32,000 nucleotides of DNA from NCBI GenBank assembly GCA_003144275.1, contig NJBF01000040.1, forward strand, positions 1-32,000, written 5' to 3'. Shown piece after piece: positions 2,183 through 16,361 of this stretch. The stretch is from Candidatus Heimdallarchaeota archaeon B3_Heim (GTDB lineage Archaea > Asgardarchaeota > Heimdallarchaeia > Hodarchaeales > Hodarchaeaceae). Position numbers and translations under genes: made by a program. The notes below the pieces were generated by a model. The model had not been told where the DNA came from and ran no database searches. It saw only the letters and a list, made by a program, of their open reading frames with translations. Position 1 is the first letter of the stretch. Every line of letters begins with the position of its first letter.

Positions 2183-3232
2183 ATGGTGAAAAAATCTTTT
2201 CATAATTTTTTGGAACAGATCCAAAACACACAAAGACAGGCTATAGAGCAAGTTGAAAGGGTACAGTCTGATAGACTTCAAGATTTTGATTATCAAGAAG
2301 ATCCTCCAAAAATGATTGCGATCGACGGCTCGAATCGCTGGATCTGGAATAATCCCGACATTAATGCACGTATTGCAATTATTCGTACCGCTTATGTTGT
2401 TTATGAGTTTAATAGCGACTTTTCCCCTCCTATGCAGATTCTTAATCAAGGTTCTCAAGATGAAGCGGTTCTGATTGCACCTGATAACCCCAACATTCAT
2501 ACTTATGATCAAGATTTCCAGAAATTGCATACTGAAATACAGAGAATAATTGGTCGCAAAAATCCATTAGGGGAAACCCTCTCTTTGCTTCGTTCACTTG
2601 CTGAATTCAAAATGGTGGAGGAATTGGCTAGTAATTATACGGAATCACTGATTGTGATGGATGGCGCTTTGACTTATGTACAGATAAAAGAATTTGAAGA
2701 CACCATTAGGAATATTGTCAAGGCCTGCAAGAAAAATAACAATATTTTGATTGGAGTATCAAAAAGGAATATTACACGGTGGCTTGGATCCGAACTAACT
2801 GATGAAGCAGTTATGAGAGAAATTGCCCGAAATGACCAAAAAATGATGTATATGGATATTCCAACGATACCCAAATCCCAACAGAAATTCCCATCTATTG
2901 GTAAGACTTATCTAGCGAAATTGCATGCAAAACCTGTTAAAACCTTTAGAGTGGATATTTATAACCCTTTAAATGTAAATGATAATAAAGTTCTGTCACA
3001 TCTAGCATACTACTCACAGGTGAACACATTTCCTGGATATCCATTTCCCTTAGTAGATGCACATACTATTGCAGCCCTTTTAAGGCGTGTTCCGGATATG
3101 TATAATCACGAATTACTAGAAGTCGGCATTCAACTTGGTTTCACAGAAGATGAATTACTCCAATACATGATAACACATGAAAATATGGAAACTGATCCAT
3201 TCCACAGATATTTAGACGATGCAACAAGATAA
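2183..3232 (+). CDS. nurA: NurA 5'-3' nuclease
   Basis: Motifs IAIDGS, LAE, LIVMDGAL, IGVSK and C-terminal GYPFPLVDAH; AGGAG upstream of the ATG; directly upstream of herA. Confidence 0.9.
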   Translation: MVKKSFHNFLEQIQNTQRQAIEQVERVQSDRLQDFDYQEDPPKMIAIDGSNRWIWNNPDINARIAIIRTAYVVYEFNSDFSPPMQILNQGSQDEAVLIAPDNPNIHTYDQDFQKLHTEIQRIIGRKNPLGETLSLLRSLAEFKMVEELASNYTESLIVMDGALTYVQIKEFEDTIRNIVKACKKNNNILIGVSKRNITRWLGSELTDEAVMREIARNDQKMMYMDIPTIPKSQQKFPSIGKTYLAKLHAKPVKTFRVDIYNPLNVNDNKVLSHLAYYSQVNTFPGYPFPLVDAHTIAALLRRVPDMYNHELLEVGIQLGFTEDELLQYMITHENMETDPFHRYLDDATR

Positions 3233-3259
3233 CATTCATTAAAATAAGAGGACAAAAAT

Positions 3260-4846
3260 ATGAAGAAAGATATTGAAGAAAAGATAGCTCTAGGTGAAGT
3301 TATTTCGGGTGCTGTAAGTGGTGCAATCCAATTAAAGCTCAGGACCGATAGTGAGGAAGTGAAAATAGGATTTCCTGCAGTCATTGAGGGGAAAAAATAT
3401 GATTTCTTTTCCATTATTTCTGATATTCAATTCCCAACAAGTAATGCGGTCACTATGTTAGCAAATGCAGAAAAACTGCGAAATACGATACCCTTGAATA
3501 CCATCGACACTTCTAGGGGACGTACATTTTATAGTATTGCTGAGCTCCAGTGTGTTCAAATGATTGAGCAGACATCTGGCAAAGCTTTTGAATTTGAGAC
3601 CCTTCCCCCTTATTTTTCATCAGGTCGATTAGCGAGTAAATCTGATGTGCAACGGGTATATCAAACAGACCTCCCTGAAAATACTCAATCAGTTGGAACC
3701 CTCAGAGGGGTAGAAGGATTTGAAATTCCAATTGATTTCAAAAAACTCGTAGAGGTACCGTTTGGGATTTTTGGTCGAACACACTCGGGAAAAACTTTTC
3801 TCAATAAGATAATCCTTGGAAATATTATTAAAACTGAGGTATCGCAGATTCTGGTTTTTGATATGCAATCCGAATATGGGTGGCGATCCCGCGCTGATAA
3901 TTCCCCTGGTCTGAAGTTTTTCTTTGAAGATCAAGTCACTCTATTAAGTCTTGACCCGAGCACAAGTAAAAGCCACGATGAGGATTTATTGATAGGAGAA
4001 AACGAAATAGAACCTGAGGATTTAATCGTAGCTTTCCAAGATCTTTCACCTACAATGATTGATGCAATTTATGAGATAAATCGAACGAAACCCTCATCAC
4101 AAACTCTTATGGAAGGAATTCATGCAGCACTGATAGCCGACCCCCCTCCTCAACGCATTAATCGTGGAACTTTGAACGCTTTGAGTAGACGTATCATGAG
4201 ATTAGATCGCTTATCTTTTGTAGTGAAATCCGATAAGGGAAATTTGAATAACATACTAAAATATATACAATCAGGCCAGAATATTGTAATCGACTTTGGG
4301 AAGTTTGGAGCGGATTTCTTCGCGTATGTGTTTGTGGCAAACATAATTTCTCGTCGATTATATAAAAGCTATAGTGAAATGGTCGATATGAGTGATTATC
4401 CTAGACTAGTTGTCCTTCTTGAAGAGGCTCATAAGTTTTTAGACCCCAGAATCTCGAAAAATACCATTTTTGATAGGCTTGCACGAGAAATGCGTAAATT
4501 TAATCTAGTATTGGCAATGGTCGATCAGCGACCTTCGAGAATTGACCCTGAGATATTATCACAACTCGCAAATCGATTCATTCTTTCCTTAACAGATCCT
4601 AAAGATACCATTAATGCTTTAACGGGCCCTGTTGATCCGGCGGCATGGCGAGCAATTGTACGTGCTATGCCTCCTCGTACTGTATTAATGTTTGGTGACG
4701 CAATCCGCGCACCGACGGCCATGGATGTTCTGGAGTATAATGAAAGCACAATGACTCAAAAATGGCAAATTAGCAGTACGTCCCAGGAGTTACGTGATAC
4801 TCTTGATTCCCTATCGGATGATGATAAAAGAAACATGTTCAAGTGA
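3260..4846 (+). CDS. herA: HerA (FtsK/HerA superfamily) DNA translocase/helicase
   Basis: N-terminal HAS-barrel-like region, Walker A GRTHSGKT, FDMQSEYG, Walker B VVLLEEAHKF, AREMRKF and DQRPS motifs; GAGG RBS. Confidence 0.93.
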   Translation: MKKDIEEKIALGEVISGAVSGAIQLKLRTDSEEVKIGFPAVIEGKKYDFFSIISDIQFPTSNAVTMLANAEKLRNTIPLNTIDTSRGRTFYSIAELQCVQMIEQTSGKAFEFETLPPYFSSGRLASKSDVQRVYQTDLPENTQSVGTLRGVEGFEIPIDFKKLVEVPFGIFGRTHSGKTFLNKIILGNIIKTEVSQILVFDMQSEYGWRSRADNSPGLKFFFEDQVTLLSLDPSTSKSHDEDLLIGENEIEPEDLIVAFQDLSPTMIDAIYEINRTKPSSQTLMEGIHAALIADPPPQRINRGTLNALSRRIMRLDRLSFVVKSDKGNLNNILKYIQSGQNIVIDFGKFGADFFAYVFVANIISRRLYKSYSEMVDMSDYPRLVVLLEEAHKFLDPRISKNTIFDRLAREMRKFNLVLAMVDQRPSRIDPEILSQLANRFILSLTDPKDTINALTGPVDPAAWRAIVRAMPPRTVLMFGDAIRAPTAMDVLEYNESTMTQKWQISSTSQELRDTLDSLSDDDKRNMFK

Positions 4847-4880
4847 TTAATCCTTATTTTTAATTCGAGATTTGATTAGA

Positions 4881-6104
4881 ATGGCAAAAATCGTCATAGT
4901 GGGAGATGTCCATATTGGAAAGCGATATGCATATCGTGTCAATTTGAAAACAGGCATTAGCGACCGTACTTTAGATTTTATTAATGCTCTTTCTAGAGTA
5001 GTTGCTTATGCAATCAATAATAAGGCCGATATATTTATCATTGCAGGGGATCTGTACGATCGCGTCACAGTCGGTCCAACACTTCTTCGACAAGTTAGAG
5101 AAACAATTTGGCAGCCTCTTATTGAAGCAAAAATTCCGATAGTTTGTATTGGGGGAAATCATGACTCACCACAAATATTTGAGAAAGGATCACCATTGGG
5201 AGAAATTTCTCTTTTTCCGAATAGTATTGTAGCACGATCTCCACAAACCGCTATAGTACACACTATGACTACAAAGGAAGAAATTGGTTTTCTTCTCCTA
5301 CCATATCTAACGGCATCCCAAGTTGTGAAGTTTGTAGAAGAACGTCTTGGTAAATCTGTCGAGAAGGAAAGACAGATGGTTTTAAGTCAAGAATATCTTA
5401 AATACTTTATAGAAAATGAATTAAAACAACTTCCCACTAAGACAAATCTTCTTGTTGGTCATTACTTCTTTCAAGGATCCAAAATTAATATTATTCCATA
5501 CCCAGATCATCTTCCTCATGAATTCAAATTTAAGAAAGATATGCTACCATTAGATAAAATTGACTTAGCAATATTCGGTCATATTCATACCACTCAAACT
5601 TTACATGGTGGAAAAGTTTTAGTTCCTGGATCATTGGAACGAGTAGATTTTGGTGAGGTGAACGAGGATAAAGGATTTTATGTATTCGAAACTACAACAG
5701 GAAAGCTAGAATTTATTACAAATAATCCTCGTTCGTTAGTTAAACAGTTTATTGAAGTACCAAGGGTAGAGGATCCTACAAATTACATAATTCAAAATTT
5801 ACCAAGAACATTAGAAGAGTCTATTGTCCGTATAATTATAAAAATATCCCCCGAATTAAAGAAGAAAGTACGTCTGCCACGTATTCATCAAGCGTTAGAT
5901 TCAACATTTCATTTTGAATTGTTCTGGGATACTTCTATAACTCAACGTGAAATAGTTCTCACTGATTTTGTTCTAGATCCATTAGTCTTATTTAATGACT
6001 TTATTACGAGAAAACTTGATCAAGACCCCAATTTGGAACAATTACGTCAAAAAGGATTAGAAATTCTTGATCGAGCACTCGCTCAGGTGGAAGAAAAGCT
6101 ATGA
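4881..6104 (+). CDS. mre11: Mre11/SbcD metallophosphoesterase nuclease
   Basis: Phosphoesterase motifs GDVHIG, GDLYD, GNHD, GHY and GHIH, plus PGSLERVDFGE. ATG at 4881 preferred over the TTG at 4872. Confidence 0.93.
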   Translation: MAKIVIVGDVHIGKRYAYRVNLKTGISDRTLDFINALSRVVAYAINNKADIFIIAGDLYDRVTVGPTLLRQVRETIWQPLIEAKIPIVCIGGNHDSPQIFEKGSPLGEISLFPNSIVARSPQTAIVHTMTTKEEIGFLLLPYLTASQVVKFVEERLGKSVEKERQMVLSQEYLKYFIENELKQLPTKTNLLVGHYFFQGSKINIIPYPDHLPHEFKFKKDMLPLDKIDLAIFGHIHTTQTLHGGKVLVPGSLERVDFGEVNEDKGFYVFETTTGKLEFITNNPRSLVKQFIEVPRVEDPTNYIIQNLPRTLEESIVRIIIKISPELKKKVRLPRIHQALDSTFHFELFWDTSITQREIVLTDFVLDPLVLFNDFITRKLDQDPNLEQLRQKGLEILDRALAQVEEKL

Positions 6105-8476
6105 GCGATACAGCCCATCACTCTTTCGGGGGAGGTTTTGATCTAATTTCTCTAGAAATATATCGCTTCATGAATTATCTGGGGAAACCAGTTAAATTTG
6201 CTTTCAATGCTCCCAATATCGTCATCTCTGGTCCAACCGGTTCAGGAAAAACAACAATTTTAGATGCCCTAACATTTGCTCTATTCGGTAGAAGCTCCCG
6301 ATTGGATCTAACTATTGTTAAAACAGAAGATATATGTGGGAATAATGGAAGAGTAACTTGTGAATTCCATATAGACAAAATCTATTACAAAATTATCCGT
6401 GGGAGGGACAGTAAGGGCAAAAGCTTTTTAGAACTGTTTATCAACAATGAACGGATTAATGGGAAAATTCCTGAGTTAAATGAGAAAATTCGGTCTACCA
6501 TCCTTGGAATGAATTATGCTGCTTTTGTAAATTCGACTATCATTCGCCAAGATGAAATGAAATCACTGGGATCTAAATCCTCAACAGAACGATTAAAAAC
6601 ATTACAAAACCTATTTCGACTGGATATTTTTAATAAAGCTATACAAGACACTCAAGAACAACTAATGACAATAAATGGCTTGAAAAATAAAGTAGAGGGT
6701 GAATTGCAAACAAATAAGAAGAATTTTTCCTCTAAAATACTTTTAGAAAAGAAAGTAAATCAATTAGTTCCTCAATTACAGAAATTGAAGAGTGAGGAAA
6801 AGAAGTCATTCAAGATAATCGGTGAAAAGGAACTAGAGAAGAATGAGAAACAAGAATTACATGAAAAATTCCAAATCACTTTAGATAGTATGAAAAACTC
6901 TGAAAAACAACTTATGAAGCTTGAAAATTCAGAGAGGAAATCAGAAGAAGAATTAAAAAAATATATGAAATTAAAAAATAATTCTATGGTTTTAGAGAAG
7001 CAAATTGAAGTAATTCGTAATCATGATGAGGAAATAAGATCTCTTGAAAGCAAGAAAAAAGAGTATACATTTATAAAATCTGGGATAGAAAAATTGATCC
7101 AGAGACGAAGGAAAGATGAATTACGACTCATAAAAGATACAGAAAAGAAGAATAATCTGAAAGCAGAAACAGTAAAGCGAATTGCGAACCTTACGACCGA
7201 TATCGATCATAAAAAGGCTTTTCAAATCTTGCAACAGGAGGGAAGATTAGGGGAACGAATTCAAAGAATTTCTCTTGAAAAATCATGGAAATTACCCGAT
7301 AAACTCATTCAGGAATTACTACAGGAACAATTAAACGCAAGATCTGATCTCAAAGAGTTATTAACGGAGAAAACAAAGATCAATATCGACTCTTTTAGAT
7401 TATCTGAAATCCAAGACACGGAAAACCAGTTAATAGCGGAAATCGAGAAATTAAATGAACGATTAAGCGAGTTAAAGGAATCTTCAGAGAAGGAAATCCA
7501 AGAGGAGAAAAACAAGCAAAAGAAGATTGGATTTTCTCCAGAAATACAGAAACATCTTGATATGTTGAAAAACTCACAAATTACTAATGAAAAGATAAAA
7601 AAAGAGTATACTACAGCAAAACATAACTTTGAGTCAATAATTGATCCTACAAGCAAAATAAATACTCTACAAAATCAAATCAAAGTGATTAAAGAGGAGA
7701 GAGTAAGATTTCGAGAGGAACTTAAAGATTATCGACAATTTCAAAAGGAGTTTGAATTTCTTAAAACTGACTTGAAAGAAAAAAAAGAAAGTGTCGAAAA
7801 ATTACAGATCCAATGTGTTCGTATGGATCAGGATATTAAGAACCTGCAATTTAATATTCTAGAACTTCAAAAATTAAAGCCAGAAATTAAAAAACTTGAG
7901 AAAAAGTTGGACAAGTTTATTCAGGAAGAAAACGTTTTAATTAAACTGAAGAATGAGGTGTTTCATATAAGGGGCGCTCCTTTCTATGCAATTAACAAGA
8001 TACTACCTCATCTTGGTAAGCGTGCTTCCCTAATTTTGTCAGATTTAACAAGCCGAAAATTAACTAGTGTTCAATTAGAAAGAATTGATAAAGGAAAACA
8101 AGGTTTGGGATTCAACATTAACATCCAAACTCCTCAAGGACCTCGGGATATTTCAACCTTTTCTGGTGGTGAACGTACTCAAATTAATGCGGCATTAAGA
8201 TTAGCGATCAGTGAAGAACTTTCCTATTTTGGTGGAGAAAGAGCTCAAGAATCAGGAACAAAGAAGACACTATTTATTGATGAGGGAGATTTGGGATCCC
8301 TTGATACTATGGAAGCTCAACAAGCATTCGTCAAGAAGCTCTTTGAATTAAGTAATAAATTTAAGATCATATTAATAACCCACATCACAGAAATTGCGGA
8401 TCAATTTCCACATTCCATTCAGATTACACGTGATACTTACGGGAGATCTATGAAAAATGCTGCGAGTGATACTTAG
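6101..8476 (+). CDS. rad50: Rad50/SbcC SMC-like ATPase without a CXXC zinc hook
   Basis: Walker A GPTGSGKT, Q-loop IIRQDE, ~450-aa coiled coil, signature FSGGE, Walker B LFIDE, D-loop SLD, H-loop ITH; ATGA overlap with the mre11 stop. Confidence 0.93.
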   Translation: MSDTAHHSFGGGFDLISLEIYRFMNYLGKPVKFAFNAPNIVISGPTGSGKTTILDALTFALFGRSSRLDLTIVKTEDICGNNGRVTCEFHIDKIYYKIIRGRDSKGKSFLELFINNERINGKIPELNEKIRSTILGMNYAAFVNSTIIRQDEMKSLGSKSSTERLKTLQNLFRLDIFNKAIQDTQEQLMTINGLKNKVEGELQTNKKNFSSKILLEKKVNQLVPQLQKLKSEEKKSFKIIGEKELEKNEKQELHEKFQITLDSMKNSEKQLMKLENSERKSEEELKKYMKLKNNSMVLEKQIEVIRNHDEEIRSLESKKKEYTFIKSGIEKLIQRRRKDELRLIKDTEKKNNLKAETVKRIANLTTDIDHKKAFQILQQEGRLGERIQRISLEKSWKLPDKLIQELLQEQLNARSDLKELLTEKTKINIDSFRLSEIQDTENQLIAEIEKLNERLSELKESSEKEIQEEKNKQKKIGFSPEIQKHLDMLKNSQITNEKIKKEYTTAKHNFESIIDPTSKINTLQNQIKVIKEERVRFREELKDYRQFQKEFEFLKTDLKEKKESVEKLQIQCVRMDQDIKNLQFNILELQKLKPEIKKLEKKLDKFIQEENVLIKLKNEVFHIRGAPFYAINKILPHLGKRASLILSDLTSRKLTSVQLERIDKGKQGLGFNINIQTPQGPRDISTFSGGERTQINAALRLAISEELSYFGGERAQESGTKKTLFIDEGDLGSLDTMEAQQAFVKKLFELSNKFKIILITHITEIADQFPHSIQITRDTYGRSMKNAASDT

Positions 8477-10740
8477 TGATCTCTGAATTCATTAAGAAAA
8501 TCAAGAATACATCTTATTATAAAGACCAAATTATATTCCAAAGGAGTATTCCTGAGAAAGACCCCCAATTTGGATCGCTTGCCTTCCAATTAGCTCCAGA
8601 ACTTGAGCAATGGCTGCGAGAGAACGAATGGAAGCTTTATTCTCACCAAGCCGATGCCCTGAATATTATAAATAAAGGAAAAAATGTTGTTGTAACCACT
8701 TCAACAGCATCGGGTAAAACATTAATTTTTTCATTGGCGGTAGCTCAAGCAATCACTCAAAGAGAAAATTCAACAGCATTATTCTTATATCCTATGAAAG
8801 CCCTAGCTAATGATCAGCTCAGTAAAATGGAAGAACTGAACGCAGTGTTGGAGGGGAGACTGCGACCTTTTATTTATGATGGAGACACACCATCCGAAAG
8901 ACGACCAGCGATTCGAAATACGGCCCGGGTTATTATCTCAAATCCATATGCCTTCCATCGCTATTTAGACTGGCATTCAAAGTGGGAACGATTTTTTCGA
9001 AATCTAAGATTTATAGTTATTGATGAGGCACATACCTACCGAGGAGTGTTTGGTTCAAATGTAGCACAACTTATTCGGAGATTACAACGGATCTGTGAAT
9101 TTTATCGTTCCCAACCACAATTTATTCTCTCTTCAGCTACAATAAACAATCCAAGAGAATTTGCTGAGAAGCTTATTGGTACTCCTCTTCATATCATCAC
9201 GAACGATGGTTCTCAGCAAGGTTCAAAGGAATTAGTTATATGGAACCCTCCCTTTGTCGATCAGTTTAATTCAAAACGAAGATCACCACATCAAGAGACA
9301 CGTGATTTACTTTTTAGCCATTTAAGTGAACATTATCAGACGCTTTGCTTCACCCTTTCAAGAAAAATGTCGGAAATCATTGCAGTCTGGGCGCGTCAAG
9401 ATCTCGAGAAGCACGAATTAGATCCTGAACAAGTAATGGCTTATCGAGCAGGGTATCGTCCCCTAGAACGAAGGAGAATTGAGAGCCAATTAAGGAATCG
9501 GGAAATATCTGCAGTCGTTAGCACAAATGCTCTTGAAGTAGGTATTGATATTGGCAATCTAGATGCAGTGCTTCTAAGTGGATTCCCAGGTACAATAATT
9601 TCAACTTGGCAACAAATCGGACGTGTCGGTAGAACTACTCGTCCTTCTCTTGCCACTCTAATTCTCTTTGAAGACGCTTATCAGCAGTTCTTAGGGCGTC
9701 ATCCAGAATATTTCCTAGAGAAGACCCCTGAGAATGCTATAATTGATTTAAACAATCCATATATCGTAAAAGGACACATTTTGTGTGCAGCTTCAGAACT
9801 ACCTATTAAAAAAGCTGAAATCAGCAAAATATGGGGAGAAGTTGGGATGAAAGTTATCAAAGAGTTATTAAATCAGGATGTACTAAAACTAGTTCCTGCA
9901 GGTATAGTTCCCAAGTCAATTAAGCATCCTTCACAACAAGTCAGTTTAAATTCAGCATTTACAGAGTCTATTGAGATTATAGTGAGTGAAAAGTTGTTAG
10001 AAACGATGACAACGGCCCAAGCATATCGTGAAGCGCATGAGGGAGCGATTTTAATCCATCAAGGGGAGAAATATCTTATTGAGACTATTGATTGGGAGAA
10101 TAAGAAGGCTTATGCATCTCCCCATCGGGTTGATTATTATACAGAAGCCATTTCTATAAGTGATGTAGAAATTATTGCCCAAGAAAACGAAAAGGATATT
10201 GGGTACTTATTGACCTTTGGTGAAGTTAAAGTAACTGAGTTCTATCATTCCTACAGAAAAAAAACATACGATGAAGTGCTTGAAATAGTACCATTCGACC
10301 TTCCCCCACTGGAATTTAATACGAAAGCTGTGTGGATTAATCTTCCTTCATCTATAGTAACTAAAGTAAAAGCGGAGAAGAAAGATTTTTCTGGGGGAAT
10401 TCATGCATTAGAGCATGCAACGATCGCTTTATCTCCCTTATTTGCTCTTTGTGATCGCTGGGATATCGGAGGCACGTCTTACCCTAATTTTCCAGATGAT
10501 GGAACAGCTAAAATCTTTATTTACGATGGATTCCCGGGGGGCATTGGAATTGCAGAACAATTATTCGAAAAGTGGGAAGTCCTCTTATCAAATGTGCTAC
10601 AGCTAATCCAAGAATGTCCTTGTAGTGAGGGATGTCCTTCTTGCATTCAATCGCCTAAATGTGGTAATGATAACTTTCCTCTAAGTAAAGAAGTGGCAAT
10701 TGACCTTTTGAAAGAATTAAAATTGCTTTCAAAGAACTGA
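8476..10740 (+). CDS. SF2 DEAH-box helicase with C-terminal DUF1998 (MrfA/YprA/SftH/Hrq1 family)
   Basis: TSTASGKT, YPMKAL, DEAH, SAT, YRAGY, TNALEVGIDIG, QQIGRVGR, HALEH, IYDGFPGGIG and the Zn-binding CPCSEGCPSC..SPKC. The GTG start shares one base with the rad50 stop (TAGTG). Confidence 0.93.
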   Translation: MISEFIKKIKNTSYYKDQIIFQRSIPEKDPQFGSLAFQLAPELEQWLRENEWKLYSHQADALNIINKGKNVVVTTSTASGKTLIFSLAVAQAITQRENSTALFLYPMKALANDQLSKMEELNAVLEGRLRPFIYDGDTPSERRPAIRNTARVIISNPYAFHRYLDWHSKWERFFRNLRFIVIDEAHTYRGVFGSNVAQLIRRLQRICEFYRSQPQFILSSATINNPREFAEKLIGTPLHIITNDGSQQGSKELVIWNPPFVDQFNSKRRSPHQETRDLLFSHLSEHYQTLCFTLSRKMSEIIAVWARQDLEKHELDPEQVMAYRAGYRPLERRRIESQLRNREISAVVSTNALEVGIDIGNLDAVLLSGFPGTIISTWQQIGRVGRTTRPSLATLILFEDAYQQFLGRHPEYFLEKTPENAIIDLNNPYIVKGHILCAASELPIKKAEISKIWGEVGMKVIKELLNQDVLKLVPAGIVPKSIKHPSQQVSLNSAFTESIEIIVSEKLLETMTTAQAYREAHEGAILIHQGEKYLIETIDWENKKAYASPHRVDYYTEAISISDVEIIAQENEKDIGYLLTFGEVKVTEFYHSYRKKTYDEVLEIVPFDLPPLEFNTKAVWINLPSSIVTKVKAEKKDFSGGIHALEHATIALSPLFALCDRWDIGGTSYPNFPDDGTAKIFIYDGFPGGIGIAEQLFEKWEVLLSNVLQLIQECPCSEGCPSCIQSPKCGNDNFPLSKEVAIDLLKELKLLSKN

Positions 10741-11068: not shown

Positions 11069-14000
11069 TTATGAGTTGAATGTTTTTCCACAACTACTAC
11101 AAAACTTTGCTTCTAGAGGCATTCGAACGCCACATTGGACACAATATTTGTGCAATGGAATCTGGGGTTTTGGGGTGATTTCTAGGGATTGCTTACGTTG
11201 ATAAGAGTACGAATAGGGGTCATATCGTTTCCGTTCATTTCGACGAATAAAGTATATAATTGCAATCGTAACTCCCAGCGCAAATACGACTGCGAGAATG
11301 AGAAGGGGAATATCAATGAAGCTAGGATTTGATATTTGAAAGAAGATTGGTTCGAGAATTGAATTCCCTTGAGCGTCACGAACATAGAAAAGAAGAAGAA
11401 AATATTCCCCCTGAATCTTTACTTCTAGATCTTCCTCATCTGGTAAAGGTATAGGGAGATCAGGTACAGTAAATATACCTGTATGCACGCTACTATCTAA
11501 AGAGGATGGATTAAGAGTAAAACTGTCAAAAACAATTCGATCAGCGGCAAAGAGGTAATAATGGATAAGCTGGTAATAAACTTCAAATTTTACTGAGTTT
11601 TCATCGTATAAGCTAAGCGAAATCTCTATCTCTTCTGCAGGTTTCCATTTAGGGACATCTTGAAAAGTTAAGATTTGCAGATAATCATCAACAGTACGAT
11701 CCCCAATAAAGCTCTGAGACCCTAGAATTACTGGTTCTTCGTCAGGAACATAAAAATAGTCACGATCTGTTTTTATTAACATCGGTTGTTTTTGCTCATT
11801 TTCCCACCATACTTGGATTTCATAAGTGTAATATCCTGGATGCAATCCTCCTGGAACTAACCAACTCGTCAATTTTAAGGTCGAATTATAATTGTAAAAT
11901 TTCTCTTCAATCATGTAACTACTAGAGAAAATCTCTGAATCCAATGGAGGAATTATAACGTCCAGTGAATCTTCATATTGGCTGGAGATGATAAGAATTG
12001 CTGAAATATTGGAACTTGAGGTATGCGTTACGGCCACGTCTAACCCCCTATCAAGAAGAAGATCATCTGAATTATCCCACCAAGAGGGAGTAGGTATTTC
12101 AAGAGACGTTATAGGGTGGACTTCAATTTCTTCAACAGTCGGAATTTGAGAAGTAGAGAGAGGTACATCTGACGTAACATTTAATGTTCCGAGAATAACA
12201 TCCCCCACAAGGTTTATTCTCACATGTGTTCCATCAACACCAGCTAACGAAAAGTCAAGATAGGCAAAAGTAAGTGTACCATTATATGGGACATTAATAT
12301 CATTGATTTGTGATCCATTTTCGAGTTCGATTGTAAGTGAGAAATTCTGTTCTAAAGATGGGTAAATGGCAACCTCCATTGCCAAAGAATCTGGAGCTAC
12401 TTGAACATTGAATGTGGTATGATTTGGAGATAACCAATCCAAAACATTGGACAGAAAGATCTGTCCTGAGGTACTTCGGAGATAAGATGAATAAATCCAC
12501 TCTTCACTGCCTAAAAGAAGCACCTTTCCCTTCCCCTCTGGCTCCAAACCTGCCAGTACAAGTTGGGTGTCGACTTGAGCATAATGCGCTAGTGACTGGT
12601 CAGTTTTATTTCCGTAAAAAGCAGTTCCCCCCAATCTTGGAAGATTTTCTACTCCAACAAAGAATGGATTGTCACTACTTATATCTAAATCATCTTTTGA
12701 TAGAAAATATGGTACTGGAATTCTATCTTGTCCATCATCGATGTATTCAACTAGCTCTGTTCTATCAGAAAGGTTGAGAGGTAGATTCAAGGCACTAATC
12801 AATTTTTCATATGGATCGAGAGTGTAATATGGAAGGAAAGATGTTACTAATAGAATTGAACCATTATTTTTGTGAAAATCGATAATACAGTCAATTTCAC
12901 GATAAGTAAGGGGATCTTCAAGATCGGTTAGGACTAAGATTCCATTTTGGGTGAGATTTGAGCTTAGTATTGGGGAATTATAGTCAATTATATCATATCG
13001 AGAACTTTGGAATAGTTGATTCAAGTAGTGATAATTATAGAAATATGAATCATCTTTTCCAGTATGGTACGTATCCCAATAAATTTTCTCATCAGGTAAT
13101 TGTACCTCAAATGCTATGGGTAATTCAAAGGTCTGATCTTCAAAAGAATAACGAATAAACCCTTGATAGGAGTCTGGGGGAGCATTAAAGGGAATATCGA
13201 TAGCAAGAACCTTTTCAAAATAAGTGGCAGAAGATATAATCGTAGGAGAGAGATCAAAATCGATAAATGGAATTAGATCATTACTTACTTCCCATGTAAT
13301 TGTTCCACCCGTTCCAGTTACAAAGGGCAGAGTAATTTCAACGTGATCACCAGGAAATGAAACTGGTTGAAAAAACTCTATTTCATTCCCGTTTGCTTCT
13401 GGTACTGTGGAAATTAGCTCATAACCTGAACTTAGTTTCGAATTTTTTAACATGTCAGCTGCCATCCCTACATTTACCAGTCCACTTCCTTGGGTGTAAA
13501 TAGATTCACTACCCCCTAGATCTGAGGCTGATTCCTGTAAGGCTGCACGTATGGCATAAGGAGAAGCATCTGGAAACTGATCCAAAAGCAATGCTACTGC
13601 TCCACTTACAACTGGTGCTGCCATCGATGTCCCTGACAATACAATATAATCAGAAAGGTAAACATCCACTAATGCATTATAAGCCAAGTCAATTACCCCT
13701 CCTGATGCAAGAGGGCCAATGATTTGGTATCCTGGAGCCACAATATCTGGATCTGGTCGAAAATCATAGGTAGGTCCTTGACTGGAAAAAGAAACGACAT
13801 TTTGACTCCCATTTGTCGCACCTACTGTTAACGCTTTTTTTGCAGAAGCAGGTGTATTAATTGTCATGAAAGGAATAGAACCATCTGCTTCATTCCCTGC
13901 AGCCGTTACAACAGTAATACCATGACCCACAACAGAATTTACTGCAAGAGCTAGAATATCCTCTGACTCCCAAGGAGCAGTAAGTCCAAATCCTAAAGAA

Positions 14001-14782
14001 ATTGAGATTATATCAACATTTAATTCAACAGCCCTATCTAAAGCGGCAATTACTGCAGAGCTGGAGGCACTCCCAAACATATCAGCCACTTTGAGATTTA
14101 CTAACTCAGAACCAGTAGCTACTCCTGGGAAAGGCCCTCCACCCGCTGCAATCCCCGCAACATGAGTACCATGCCCATGTAGATCAGAAATGTCCTCTTC
14201 AGAAGAATATCCATAATCTGATGTTACAAATGATTCTTGATATCCGACGTTGACAAAATCTGAGTGTGAAGTATCTAATCCCGAATCTAGTATAGCTATT
14301 TTTACACCCGAGCCATCATATCCAGAAATTGTTAATGGAGATGCATTAATAATATCACTAGGGAGTTCATAATCCTGTTGTATATCTTGAATATACTTCG
14401 GGGTTAGTTCCTCTAATGAAGGTAATACTGTCATCAGTTTTGAGGATTGTACACGAGAGAATATTTGTCCAAAATCATTTTTCAGTATAGATAGATCATT
14501 TTGTGATAAAGAAACCTTACCAATATGTAAATTTTCAAAGAATTTTAGAGAGGAATTACCATTCTGCTCAAAATGTTCTTTTAAAAGCTCCTTTTCTTCT
14601 GGGTGGTATGTAAATAAATAAACAGAAGTACTCTCGATATTTGAAGACATATTAACAGAGTTATCCGTTGATATTTGGAGCGTTTCCCCTCCTAAAGCGA
14701 CCTTCGGAATCGGGAGGATCATTAAAAGAATTAAAACTATTTTACTTGCAAGATAAAAGGTTCTATGTTTTGCTAGATTCAA
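11069..14782 (-). CDS. Membrane-anchored S8 subtilase, 1237 aa: signal peptide, propeptide, S8 domain, Ig-like domain, GATase/IFT52(GIFT)-like domain, C-terminal TM helix and zinc ribbon
   Basis: Catalytic triad ILDSG / HGHGTHVAG / SGTSMAAP, oxyanion AAGN; N-terminal hydrophobic stretch; TM IPLLILAVVFALGVTIAIIYFI followed by RRNERKR; terminal CVQC...CSSC; TTG start preceded by GAGG. Confidence 0.92.
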   Translation of the reverse strand: MNLAKHRTFYLASKIVLILLMILPIPKVALGGETLQISTDNSVNMSSNIESTSVYLFTYHPEEKELLKEHFEQNGNSSLKFFENLHIGKVSLSQNDLSILKNDFGQIFSRVQSSKLMTVLPSLEELTPKYIQDIQQDYELPSDIINASPLTISGYDGSGVKIAILDSGLDTSHSDFVNVGYQESFVTSDYGYSSEEDISDLHGHGTHVAGIAAGGGPFPGVATGSELVNLKVADMFGSASSSAVIAALDRAVELNVDIISISLGFGLTAPWESEDILALAVNSVVGHGITVVTAAGNEADGSIPFMTINTPASAKKALTVGATNGSQNVVSFSSQGPTYDFRPDPDIVAPGYQIIGPLASGGVIDLAYNALVDVYLSDYIVLSGTSMAAPVVSGAVALLLDQFPDASPYAIRAALQESASDLGGSESIYTQGSGLVNVGMAADMLKNSKLSSGYELISTVPEANGNEIEFFQPVSFPGDHVEITLPFVTGTGGTITWEVSNDLIPFIDFDLSPTIISSATYFEKVLAIDIPFNAPPDSYQGFIRYSFEDQTFELPIAFEVQLPDEKIYWDTYHTGKDDSYFYNYHYLNQLFQSSRYDIIDYNSPILSSNLTQNGILVLTDLEDPLTYREIDCIIDFHKNNGSILLVTSFLPYYTLDPYEKLISALNLPLNLSDRTELVEYIDDGQDRIPVPYFLSKDDLDISSDNPFFVGVENLPRLGGTAFYGNKTDQSLAHYAQVDTQLVLAGLEPEGKGKVLLLGSEEWIYSSYLRSTSGQIFLSNVLDWLSPNHTTFNVQVAPDSLAMEVAIYPSLEQNFSLTIELENGSQINDINVPYNGTLTFAYLDFSLAGVDGTHVRINLVGDVILGTLNVTSDVPLSTSQIPTVEEIEVHPITSLEIPTPSWWDNSDDLLLDRGLDVAVTHTSSSNISAILIISSQYEDSLDVIIPPLDSEIFSSSYMIEEKFYNYNSTLKLTSWLVPGGLHPGYYTYEIQVWWENEQKQPMLIKTDRDYFYVPDEEPVILGSQSFIGDRTVDDYLQILTFQDVPKWKPAEEIEISLSLYDENSVKFEVYYQLIHYYLFAADRIVFDSFTLNPSSLDSSVHTGIFTVPDLPIPLPDEEDLEVKIQGEYFLLLFYVRDAQGNSILEPIFFQISNPSFIDIPLLILAVVFALGVTIAIIYFIRRNERKRYDPYSYSYQRKQSLEITPKPQIPLHKYCVQCGVRMPLEAKFCSSCGKTFNS

Positions 14783-15024: not shown

Positions 15025-15249
15025 TTATTGGCTAGTTCTGTCTCTTAGTTCTTTCATTCCCTCATGTAGCTGCTTCGCAGCATTCTCTTTTCTACGTTGA
15101 TATTCTTGGTCAATTTGTATCTGTCTTTCTCTCTCTTGTCTGACGACTTTCAATTGATCTTCAACGGGAATATCGCTTTTCCTCTGTTTTTGCTCCTCTA
15201 CTGAACGTTTTAATCTTTTAACTATTTCTTGGAAATTTGTATTGCTCAT
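15025..15249 (-). CDS. Small highly charged coiled-coil protein, 74 aa
   Basis: ATG start, E/K/R/Q-rich helical composition, co-oriented with neighbours and followed by oligo-T tracts. Confidence 0.6.
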   Translation of the reverse strand: MSNTNFQEIVKRLKRSVEEQKQRKSDIPVEDQLKVVRQERERQIQIDQEYQRRKENAAKQLHEGMKELRDRTSQ

Positions 15250-15401: not shown

Positions 15402-16361
15402 CTATCGTTTGGGAGCTTGGCGGACTCTTCGTGTTCTTTTCTCTACTAGATTATTTCTATATTCGCCTTTACCCAAAAAAGATTCAGAGGGAATTAACTC
15501 ACCTGGATAAATGTCCAGAGTTTTTTCAAAAAGATATTCCTTAAGATTAAAAGGTAATTCCGAAACAATCTCATCTCTAACCTCCTCAGGATCGATACCT
15601 ATCTTATATATTCGCTTAAAGAATTGATTAACATTAATTATATCGGTTTCAAGCATTTTGACTGCTCTATCAATACGAATTCGTACAGGTGTGTTAGTAA
15701 ATGTCTTAGTGTTATATTCTATGGATTGAGAGACGTCCATTGTAAAGAGCTCACCAGAATGTGTTTGAATCATGAGATTATGTTCAGAAAAATCGCCATG
15801 GATCATCCGACTTTTTAAAAAGATTTGAGCTATTATATCGATTGCCGAAAATAGGATTTCTTCTGGATTGAAAGATAAGAGATTTACATCCCGGATTAGC
15901 GGGGCTGGAGTCATTGGTGCAGAGGGACTTTCGGGGATAAAGTCCATTAAAACAATATTTTGTAACAAACCACGAGGTTTTGGTACAGCGGTGAATTTTG
16001 CCATTGCATGTAAATTCCAGTACTCTTGTTTCGCTGCAATCACTGCCATATCGCTAGGTAGGAGATGAATTGTTCCTCTAAGTCGTTTTTTGATGGTACT
16101 AGTATAATACCGAAATACTTTTGCACAGATAAGGCCATCCTTCGGATCCTCAGCCAATAAAACTGTCGCTTCTTTTCCCCCTCCTATAACAGAGTAGACC
16201 TGTTTTACTTTTTGAGTTTCAAGGAGCTGGGTTATTGCATCAGCAATACGTACTTCAGCAGGGCTTACTTTGAACTGTCGTTTTTTACGATGTTCCTCAC
16301 GTCCTGGAGCAATTTTTCCATATCTTTCAAATCCAATTCTTTGATTATGATCCGTGCTCAT
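15402..16361 (-). CDS. rio1: RIO1-family atypical Ser/Thr kinase
   Basis: GGGKEATV P-loop, CAKVFR lysine, VPKP, LMDFI hinge, catalytic IHGDFSEHN, metal-binding MDVSQS; no N-terminal wHTH (so not RIO2); GGAGG RBS at 16370-16374. Confidence 0.88.
   Translation of the reverse strand: MSTDHNQRIGFERYGKIAPGREEHRKKRQFKVSPAEVRIADAITQLLETQKVKQVYSVIGGGKEATVLLAEDPKDGLICAKVFRYYTSTIKKRLRGTIHLLPSDMAVIAAKQEYWNLHAMAKFTAVPKPRGLLQNIVLMDFIPESPSAPMTPAPLIRDVNLLSFNPEEILFSAIDIIAQIFLKSRMIHGDFSEHNLMIQTHSGELFTMDVSQSIEYNTKTFTNTPVRIRIDRAVKMLETDIINVNQFFKRIYKIGIDPEEVRDEIVSELPFNLKEYLFEKTLDIYPGELIPSESFLGKGEYRNNLVEKRTRRVRQAPKR

Follow-up and report, generated by a model that had tools for sequence, protein, structure and literature searches.

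A membrane-anchored Asgard archaeal subtilase with a body plan probably shared with eukaryotic site-1 protease

Cryo-electron microscopy of human site-1 protease (S1P, also called SKI-1 or MBTPS1; PDB 8UW8) has revealed pro-domains A and B, an S8 domain, a non-canonical 'P-like' beta-sandwich (residues 479-616), a GIFT domain (617-998), a transmembrane helix and a short tail (PMC11231238). Within the proprotein-convertase group, the GIFT subdomain is described as peculiar to S1P, the sole member to carry one (PMC11231238). The subject of the present analysis is a gene from a Hodarchaeales (Asgard) archaeon that occupies positions 11069-14782 on the minus strand of a 32,000-nt stretch of DNA (contig NJBF01000040.1, positions 1-32,000 of the forward strand; hereafter the window, to which all nucleotide positions of this gene and its neighbours refer) and constitutes a single open reading frame (ORF) for a protease of 1237 amino acids (aa). 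An earlier note on this DNA had delimited this ORF exactly, had noticed its S8 domain, and had read the product as a prokaryotic relative of S1P. Domain order, predicted packing and the Asgard host speak for that reading; S1P-specific sequence signal is lacking, and orthology and a role in regulated intramembrane proteolysis are not supported. The protein as a whole is likely to be a surface-anchored, active type-I subtilase of an Asgard family, with a body plan probably shared with S1P, but without being an S1P orthologue. The literature searched on Asgard archaea together with S1P, MBTPS1 or GIFT contained no paper linking S1P to archaea.

Domain order and predicted packing

Three domains make up the part of the protease that is comparable with S1P, and all are encoded on the minus strand: a Peptidase S8 catalytic domain (aa 145-445; 13448..14350), an Ig-like beta-sandwich corresponding to the 'P-like' domain (aa 455-562; 13097..13420), which is all-beta in both of the AlphaFold2 (AF2) models described below, and an alpha/beta, GATase1-like GIFT domain of the GldG/IFT52 type (aa 563-795; 12398..13096). 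With the C-terminal transmembrane helix added, the order S8, Ig-like (P-like), GIFT and helix is identical to that of S1P in PDB 8UW8. The catalytic domain matches PF00082 at aa 157-434 (E 7e-55; 186.8 bits vs. a Pfam cut-off of 21.8), and none of its residues D166, H204, N297 (oxyanion) and S386 varies among 15 relatives sharing 39-67% identity. The protein thus belongs to Peptidase S8, having the Asp-His-Ser triad in that order, the oxyanion Asn and a PF00082 score above threshold, and it is apparently catalytically competent. The GIFT assignment was made from an IFT52_GIFT match and from Foldseek. PF23355 (IFT52_GIFT) matches aa 593-646 at E 0.0014 and 18.2 bits, below its Pfam cut-off of 27.2, and the family profile reaches IFT52 (5fmr) among PDB sequences at E 5e-4; sequence similarity and fold (IFT52 at 4e-10; template-modelling score, TM-score, 0.58-0.67 by target) together place the domain in the GIFT family.

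Comparison of predicted structures brought out the resemblance to S1P. The first AF2 model covered aa 450-800 (predicted local distance difference test, pLDDT, 77), a region for which the earlier note had proposed a Foldseek comparison with human MBTPS1. S1P was indeed its best PDB match (8uw8_A, E 8e-14), ahead of IFT52 (4e-10) and OST48 (1e-6), the alignment extending over S1P residues 503-874, and the five best matches among Swiss-Prot models were all S1P, including Arabidopsis SBT6.1. Within this region the Ig-like domain aligns to S1P residues ~503-616, both in Foldseek and in hhalign. The second model, of aa 140-800 (S8, Ig-like and GIFT), was built on 34 sequences (pLDDT 90, predicted TM-score 0.84) and matched S1P at E 2.6e-40 (9csd_A) and E 1.6e-38 (8uw8_A), with a TM-score of 0.69 by query and 0.62 by target; the next PDB entry other than S1P followed at E 6e-30 and a TM-score of 0.46. 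Entries comprising S8 only scored 0.38 against this model, 8UWC (S1P without a resolved GIFT domain) 0.47 and full S1P 0.69, and because the GIFT domain thus adds 0.22 over S8 plus Ig, it is placed in the model as in S1P. VIA-align superposed 573 of the 661 modeled residues on 8uw8_A (192-874) at 4.2 Å, compared with at most 371 for other entries, and a shape search of the ESM Atlas returned at the top a eukaryotic S1P cluster (TM-score 0.75, 583 residues aligned), which is itself a predicted model. The S8, Ig-like and GIFT domains of the predicted structure are therefore packed against each other as in 8UW8.

Shared origin or convergence

The kinship suggested by fold was also examined through sequence, the S1P profiles being built from an alignment of 12 bait-retrieved S1Ps. 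In hhalign, residues 138-646 of the family are collinear with residues 192-725 of S1P (E 4e-30), S8 carrying the score. The human S1P motifs cited in the earlier note were genuine: used as a 61-aa bait, they retrieved at least 465 proteins, and the named matches among those listed are almost all site-1 proteases. All the strings it had quoted from the archaeal protein occur in the translation (WDTYH is encoded at 13078-13064, minus strand), and the profile-profile alignment paired QPVSFPG with QPIYYGG, KIYWDTYH with RVLWDQYH, NNGSILL with DNGLSLI, and ILVLTDLE..REI with a 12-residue S1P counterpart, as it had done. For Ig and GIFT alone against S1P, the profile-profile comparison gave P 0.004 and a local hhalign run E 0.03.

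Set beside the S1P entries compared (S1P/SKI-1/MBTPS1, plant SBT6.1, and PDB 8UW8, 8UWC and 9CSD), the archaeal protease has in common with them a putative signal peptide, a propeptide, S8, P-like and GIFT domains, a C-terminal transmembrane helix and a basic stop-transfer sequence, as well as collinear motifs and a three-part packing that superposes on 8UW8. It differs in possessing an extra stalk of ~360 aa and a 56-aa zinc-ribbon tail where S1P has a short basic one, and in having neither a conserved basic autoprocessing motif nor matches to the S1P families of Pfam; moreover, there are several paralogues per genome on the Asgard side. SPRING is a cofactor of S1P. IFT52, OST48/WBP1 and the GldG-type accessory proteins of ABC transporters have the same GIFT fold, with weak sequence similarity, but no protease, whereas the GIFT domain of the 1237-aa protein is fused behind S8 and Ig as in S1P.

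A paralogue in the same genome provides a connection between the two groups. Eight S8 genes are present, at least three of which, besides that of the 1237-aa protease, encode long, membrane-anchored proteins of like body plan with GIFT/DUF4350-type regions. The first, of 827 aa (contig C33, L030:218-2701:-), lacks both stalk and zinc ribbon and ends in a short basic tail like that of S1P; the second, of 904 aa (contig C33, L032:240-2954:-), lies ~17 kb from it and has a zinc-ribbon tail; and the third is of 1052 aa (contig C38, L031:273-3431:-). The 827-aa paralogue gave the top score of the genome with the S1P S8 profile (101 bits vs. 74 for the 1237-aa protease), and its Hodarchaeales family (16 sequences) aligned with S1P at E 4.6e-30 over 628 columns that extend from the prodomain through the whole of GIFT, with the GIFT domain alone reaching E 4e-5. 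Because it is clearly homologous to the family of the 1237-aa protease over Ig and GIFT on one side (hhalign E 2.8e-13) and matches S1P over the whole ectodomain and in GIFT on the other, the 827-aa paralogue bridges the protease family to S1P, and on these comparisons it is more S1P-like than the 1237-aa protease. Its named relatives are all Asgard.

The taxonomic distribution of the combined architecture is likewise centered on Asgard archaea. When 1.84 billion representatives were searched with the family profile, 212 matches were obtained; S8 and GIFT occur together in about half of the best 150, most of these proteins also having a C-terminal transmembrane helix and zinc ribbon, and no eukaryotic S1P was found among the best 150 of the 212. 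The S8-GIFT relatives with a source name, among the matches listed, are all Asgard (Promethearchaeota, Lokiarchaeia, Ranarchaeia, Sigynarchaeota, Asgardarchaeia or Hodarchaeales). Of 301 Asgard genomes, 103 have the protease family according to the Ig-GIFT profile, as do 19 of 20 other genomes scored from the host's own family; most of the matches are ORFs of 1220-1350 aa. The named close relatives all come from metagenome-assembled genomes of Hodarchaeales, Heimdallarchaeota or Hermodarchaeota.

Several results weigh against a common ancestry with S1P. Neither the protein nor its parts matched PF23001 (MBTP1_N), PF23094 (MBTPS1_3rd) or PF23090 (MBTPS1_4th) at E up to 10, and PF23090 was found in none of 20 genomes of the host's own family. 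Across the 301 Asgard genomes as a whole this model matches in 27, in 18 of them above the curated cut-off, and it matches in none of 14 control genomes; P0040, a close sister of the protease's clade, is among the matches at 31 bits. Yet in the relatives its scores do not exceed those of ABC_transp_aux, DUF4350 or IFT52_GIFT. Sequence identity of the S8 domain amounts to 38-40% with Tk-SP and subtilisins vs. 22% with S1P. Conversely, the S1P S8 profile scores bacterial subtilisins at 100-107 bits vs. 74 bits for the 1237-aa protease, and tblastn with an S1P S8 domain found Streptomyces S8 proteins devoid of GIFT at 128-135 bits. The Ig-GIFT profile did not reach the S1P chain among PDB sequences at E up to 10, and local HMM-to-sequence searches between the Asgard and S1P Ig/GIFT regions remained at noise (~3 bits). 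According to an AlphaFold cluster search, in which the taxonomy of the matches was not readable, bacteria often have Ig-GIFT pairs unaccompanied by S8. In the ESM Atlas, the second row was an archaeal S8 cluster of 202 members, with a TM-score of 0.65 over 509 residues; the phylum is known for five of the 202 and is most commonly Methanobacteriota. A similar build may therefore exist outside Asgard archaea, and this cluster together with the bacterial Ig-GIFT pairs leaves room for an independent fusion. Finally, the fold evidence consists of predicted models, although 8UW8 itself is experimental.

Phylogenetic analysis of the S8 domain, which the earlier note had put forward as a check, could place S1P neither with the family nor away from it. 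After a quick tree that settled no placement, a careful maximum likelihood tree was made of 51 S8 domains, representing S1Ps (from animals only), six Asgard groups, five bacterial S8 proteins and three short S8 proteins of the genome. The protease family falls firmly inside an Asgard group of ~1250-aa proteins (98/98), and S1P is united with the 827-aa family (86/90), both branches being long and the support not decisive. The S8 backbone of the tree lacked resolution, and approximately unbiased (AU) tests rejected none of three placements of S1P: beside the protease clade (p 0.24), beside Streptomyces (p 0.235) and beside the Asgard S8-GIFT proteins as a whole (p 0.28). Because only animal S1Ps were included and the AU tests reject nothing, the S8 domain says nothing on S1P ancestry either way. 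Of the two outcomes that the earlier note had named as jointly telling against its reading, one was observed, in that the GIFT domain fits generic models and MBTPS1_4th and MBTPS1_3rd are not matched, while for the other, an S8 domain grouping away from S1P, the tree favors neither side.

The most serious alternative is that the architecture is convergent, the protein being an ordinary archaeal surface protease for degradation or peptide uptake, which gained generic Ig and GldG-like GIFT modules independently of the S1P lineage. This explanation is less probable than shared ancestry, but it is a real contender. It accounts for a GIFT domain to which generic models fit at least as closely as those of S1P, for an S8 domain closest in sequence to Tk-SP and subtilisins, for the equal closeness of the S1P S8 domain to bacterial S8 proteins without GIFT, and for the presence of Ig-GIFT modules in many bacterial proteins, and the S8 tree does not oppose it. 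It accounts less readily for the recurrence of the same three domains in the same order and rigid packing (TM-scores of 0.69-0.75, with the contribution of GIFT noted above), for the alignment of the 827-aa paralogue with S1P from prodomain to GIFT end, and for the restriction of named prokaryotic S8-GIFT relatives, among the matches listed, to Asgard archaea. A common origin of the body plan with S1P is regarded as probable. The 1237-aa protease is not an S1P orthologue, nor is it the paralogue closest to S1P, and the claim is limited to 'same build', as sequence data cannot separate inheritance from independent fusion.

Topology, gene and locus

The remaining features of the protein suggest a type-I membrane protein. 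A putative signal peptide or N-terminal hydrophobic segment (aa 1-33; 14684..14782, minus strand, as for all features of the protease gene) has a basic KHR n-region, a hydrophobic run and ALGG, and the aligned relatives begin with Met at this segment. The propeptide (aa 46-138; 14369..14647) was recognized from an alignment of the family profile with unprocessed pro-subtilisin E, in which query residues 71-441 pair with residues 33-364 of the 3whi_A chain from the propeptide onward. At the pro/catalytic junction, the motif QQxxY/xxPxxIINA is conserved and P141 invariant in an alignment of 15 relatives, and the propeptide is predicted to be cut after Tyr138. This junction resembles that of pro-subtilisin, with Tyr at P1, and is a trait in common with Tk-SP and bacterial subtilisins. 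Tk-SP of Thermococcus kodakarensis (PDB 3AFG, 9UES) is the closest solved S8 structure (39% identity, root-mean-square deviation 2.1 Å, E 2.6e-38); these enzymes differ in being secreted and soluble, and in having neither GIFT nor a membrane anchor. The RxxL-type autoprocessing site for which the earlier note had suggested looking is not conserved at the junction: no conserved Arg-based motif, and thus no S1P-type R-x-hydrophobic-x pattern, was apparent at aa 100-145 in the 15 relatives.

Behind the GIFT domain follows a beta-rich stalk of no known family (aa 796-1157, ~360 aa; 11312..12397), which, like the cytosolic four-Cys zinc ribbon, had been overlooked in the earlier note. Neither the stalk nor the N-terminus has a Pfam or NCBIfam match, whether the whole protein or its parts are searched, and language-model leads for the stalk (Ig-like families) were at noise level (at most 0.81). 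Members of the Hodarchaeales family keep the stalk, whereas in the wider family its conservation is patchy. A single transmembrane helix (approximately aa 1158-1181; 11240..11311) appears as an uncharged hydrophobic window, which almost every full-length relative has in this position. As had been noticed before, this one hydrophobic helix precedes a basic sequence, RRNERKR, which serves as the putative stop-transfer of a 56-aa cytosolic tail that also contains a PYS motif and a zinc ribbon (11069..11239, including the stop codon). The zinc ribbon (CxxC-x10-CxxC; aa 1214-1231; nt 11090-11143) is matched by Zn_Ribbon_1 of Pfam at aa 1213-1233 (E 1.7e-5). Its Cys residues 1214, 1217, 1228 and 1231 are invariant in the tails of 13 relatives, and most members of the wider ~1250-aa family have the ribbon. 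A signal-like N-terminus, one transmembrane helix and RRNERKR would suit an S1P-like type-I topology, with the protease displayed at the cell surface, although the tail is not short and ends in a conserved zinc ribbon that S1P lacks. Hints of an extracellular ectodomain also come from an excess of N-glycosylation sequons (15 vs. 8.6 expected) and from the distribution of Cys residues (one in the ectodomain vs. four in the tail).

The ORF begins with TTG, and because the same open frame still includes a GTG 12 codons upstream, its start is slightly uncertain. Relative to an orthologue of 92% similarity, the ratio of nonsynonymous to synonymous substitution rates (dN/dS) is 0.32 for the whole gene and 0.12 in S8, its most constrained portion, indicative of purifying selection, and the gene is therefore considered real and constrained. 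Synonymous divergence (dS) from the nearest orthologue (L014) is very uneven, amounting to 0.56 in the stalk (11312-12397) and 0.04 in the Ig-like domain (13097-13420), which could reflect recombination or a mosaic ancestry of the stalk. Promoter and terminator scans gave results at chance level only.

The locus is syntenic across Hodarchaeales, where the gene lies between a NurA-HerA-Mre11-Rad50-helicase cluster and genes for RIO kinase, CinA and aminotransferase. In the window, the cluster occupies 2183-10740 (plus strand) and encodes NurA, HerA, an Mre11-type phosphoesterase, a Rad50-type ATPase and a DEAD/Hrq1-type helicase with an MrfA zinc-binding domain, the start of the helicase gene overlapping the preceding stop; the helicase-Rad50 portion is syntenic across the Hodarchaeales loci. 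Upstream of the protease gene and on the same strand is a RIO-type kinase gene (15402-16361), probably unrelated to the protease because the two are adjacent only in the closest relatives. These DNA-repair genes and the RIO kinase are functionally unrelated and give no hint of protease function. Directly upstream, also on the minus strand, is a 74-aa ORF (15025..15249) for a charged, probably helical protein with an invariant I..EY.RRK..AA..L..G and no Pfam family. It is kept at the same place in eight of the 13 related loci examined, including loci with different other upstream neighbors. A complex prediction for the zinc-ribbon tail with the 74-aa protein was non-committal (score 0.00), and the latter is an unproven candidate associate of the protease by its position only.

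Proposed function and evolutionary meaning

A working scheme for the protease can be drawn from this organization. Following export, the N-terminal propeptide would be removed, probably autocatalytically, at the subtilisin-like site after Tyr138, leaving a mature ectodomain in which S8, 'P-like' and GIFT domains may form a rigid unit packed as in S1P. If GIFT acts as it does in S1P, it would buttress the S8 loops that surround the oxyanion hole and restrict access to the active site. The ~360-aa stalk might lift this unit above the membrane, in which the single helix would anchor it, and the cytosolic zinc ribbon may be a handle for some intracellular partner. The likely task of such an enzyme would be membrane-proximal cleavage of surface or secreted proteins, for maturation, shedding or supply of peptides.

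A true functional counterpart of S1P, which would cleave a membrane-bound regulator first, on the extracytoplasmic side, before an S2P/M50 protease processes it in regulated intramembrane proteolysis, is improbable. The S1P-like body plan and topology would be in keeping with such a role, and the cytosolic zinc ribbon hints at coupling between inside and outside. The M50 partners sought by the earlier note do exist, as four genes in the genome; however, M50 genes likewise occur in each of the 14 control genomes, and those of this genome are unlinked to the protease gene. The neighbors are DNA-repair genes and a RIO kinase, the subtilisin-like junction has Tyr at P1 in place of a conserved basic RxxL-type site, no candidate substrate was identified, and the presence of four paralogues in a genome points to broader roles. 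S1P-like basic specificity and a tie to S2P are accordingly not supported for the 1237-aa protease. Still less credible is a non-catalytic scaffold or transporter accessory, as might be imagined from the occurrence of GIFT in GldG-type ABC accessory proteins and the matches of relatives to PF09822, given that D166, H204, N297 and S386 are invariant, that S8 is the most constrained portion, and that no ABC transporter gene was found among the neighbors scanned (window positions 2183-22288) or in the syntenic loci.

Interpreted as a surface-anchored Asgard subtilase of the same build as S1P, the protease is a hint that the body plan of S1P predates the eukaryotes. Hodarchaeales are usually placed nearest to eukaryotes. 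A more far-reaching proposition, that the Asgard S8/P-like/GIFT family was the prokaryotic source of S1P, so that the protease initiating SREBP/ATF6-type signaling was inherited from Asgard archaea and the 827-aa paralogue, rather than the 1237-aa protease, is its closest living relative, is tentatively entertained at somewhat less than even chances. Proteases with the S1P-type body plan are found widely among Asgard archaea, and Hodarchaeales have several paralogues of them. A protease of the secretory pathway would thereby join the candidate eukaryotic signature proteins, and a tractable prokaryotic model for the control of a subtilase by GIFT would become available.

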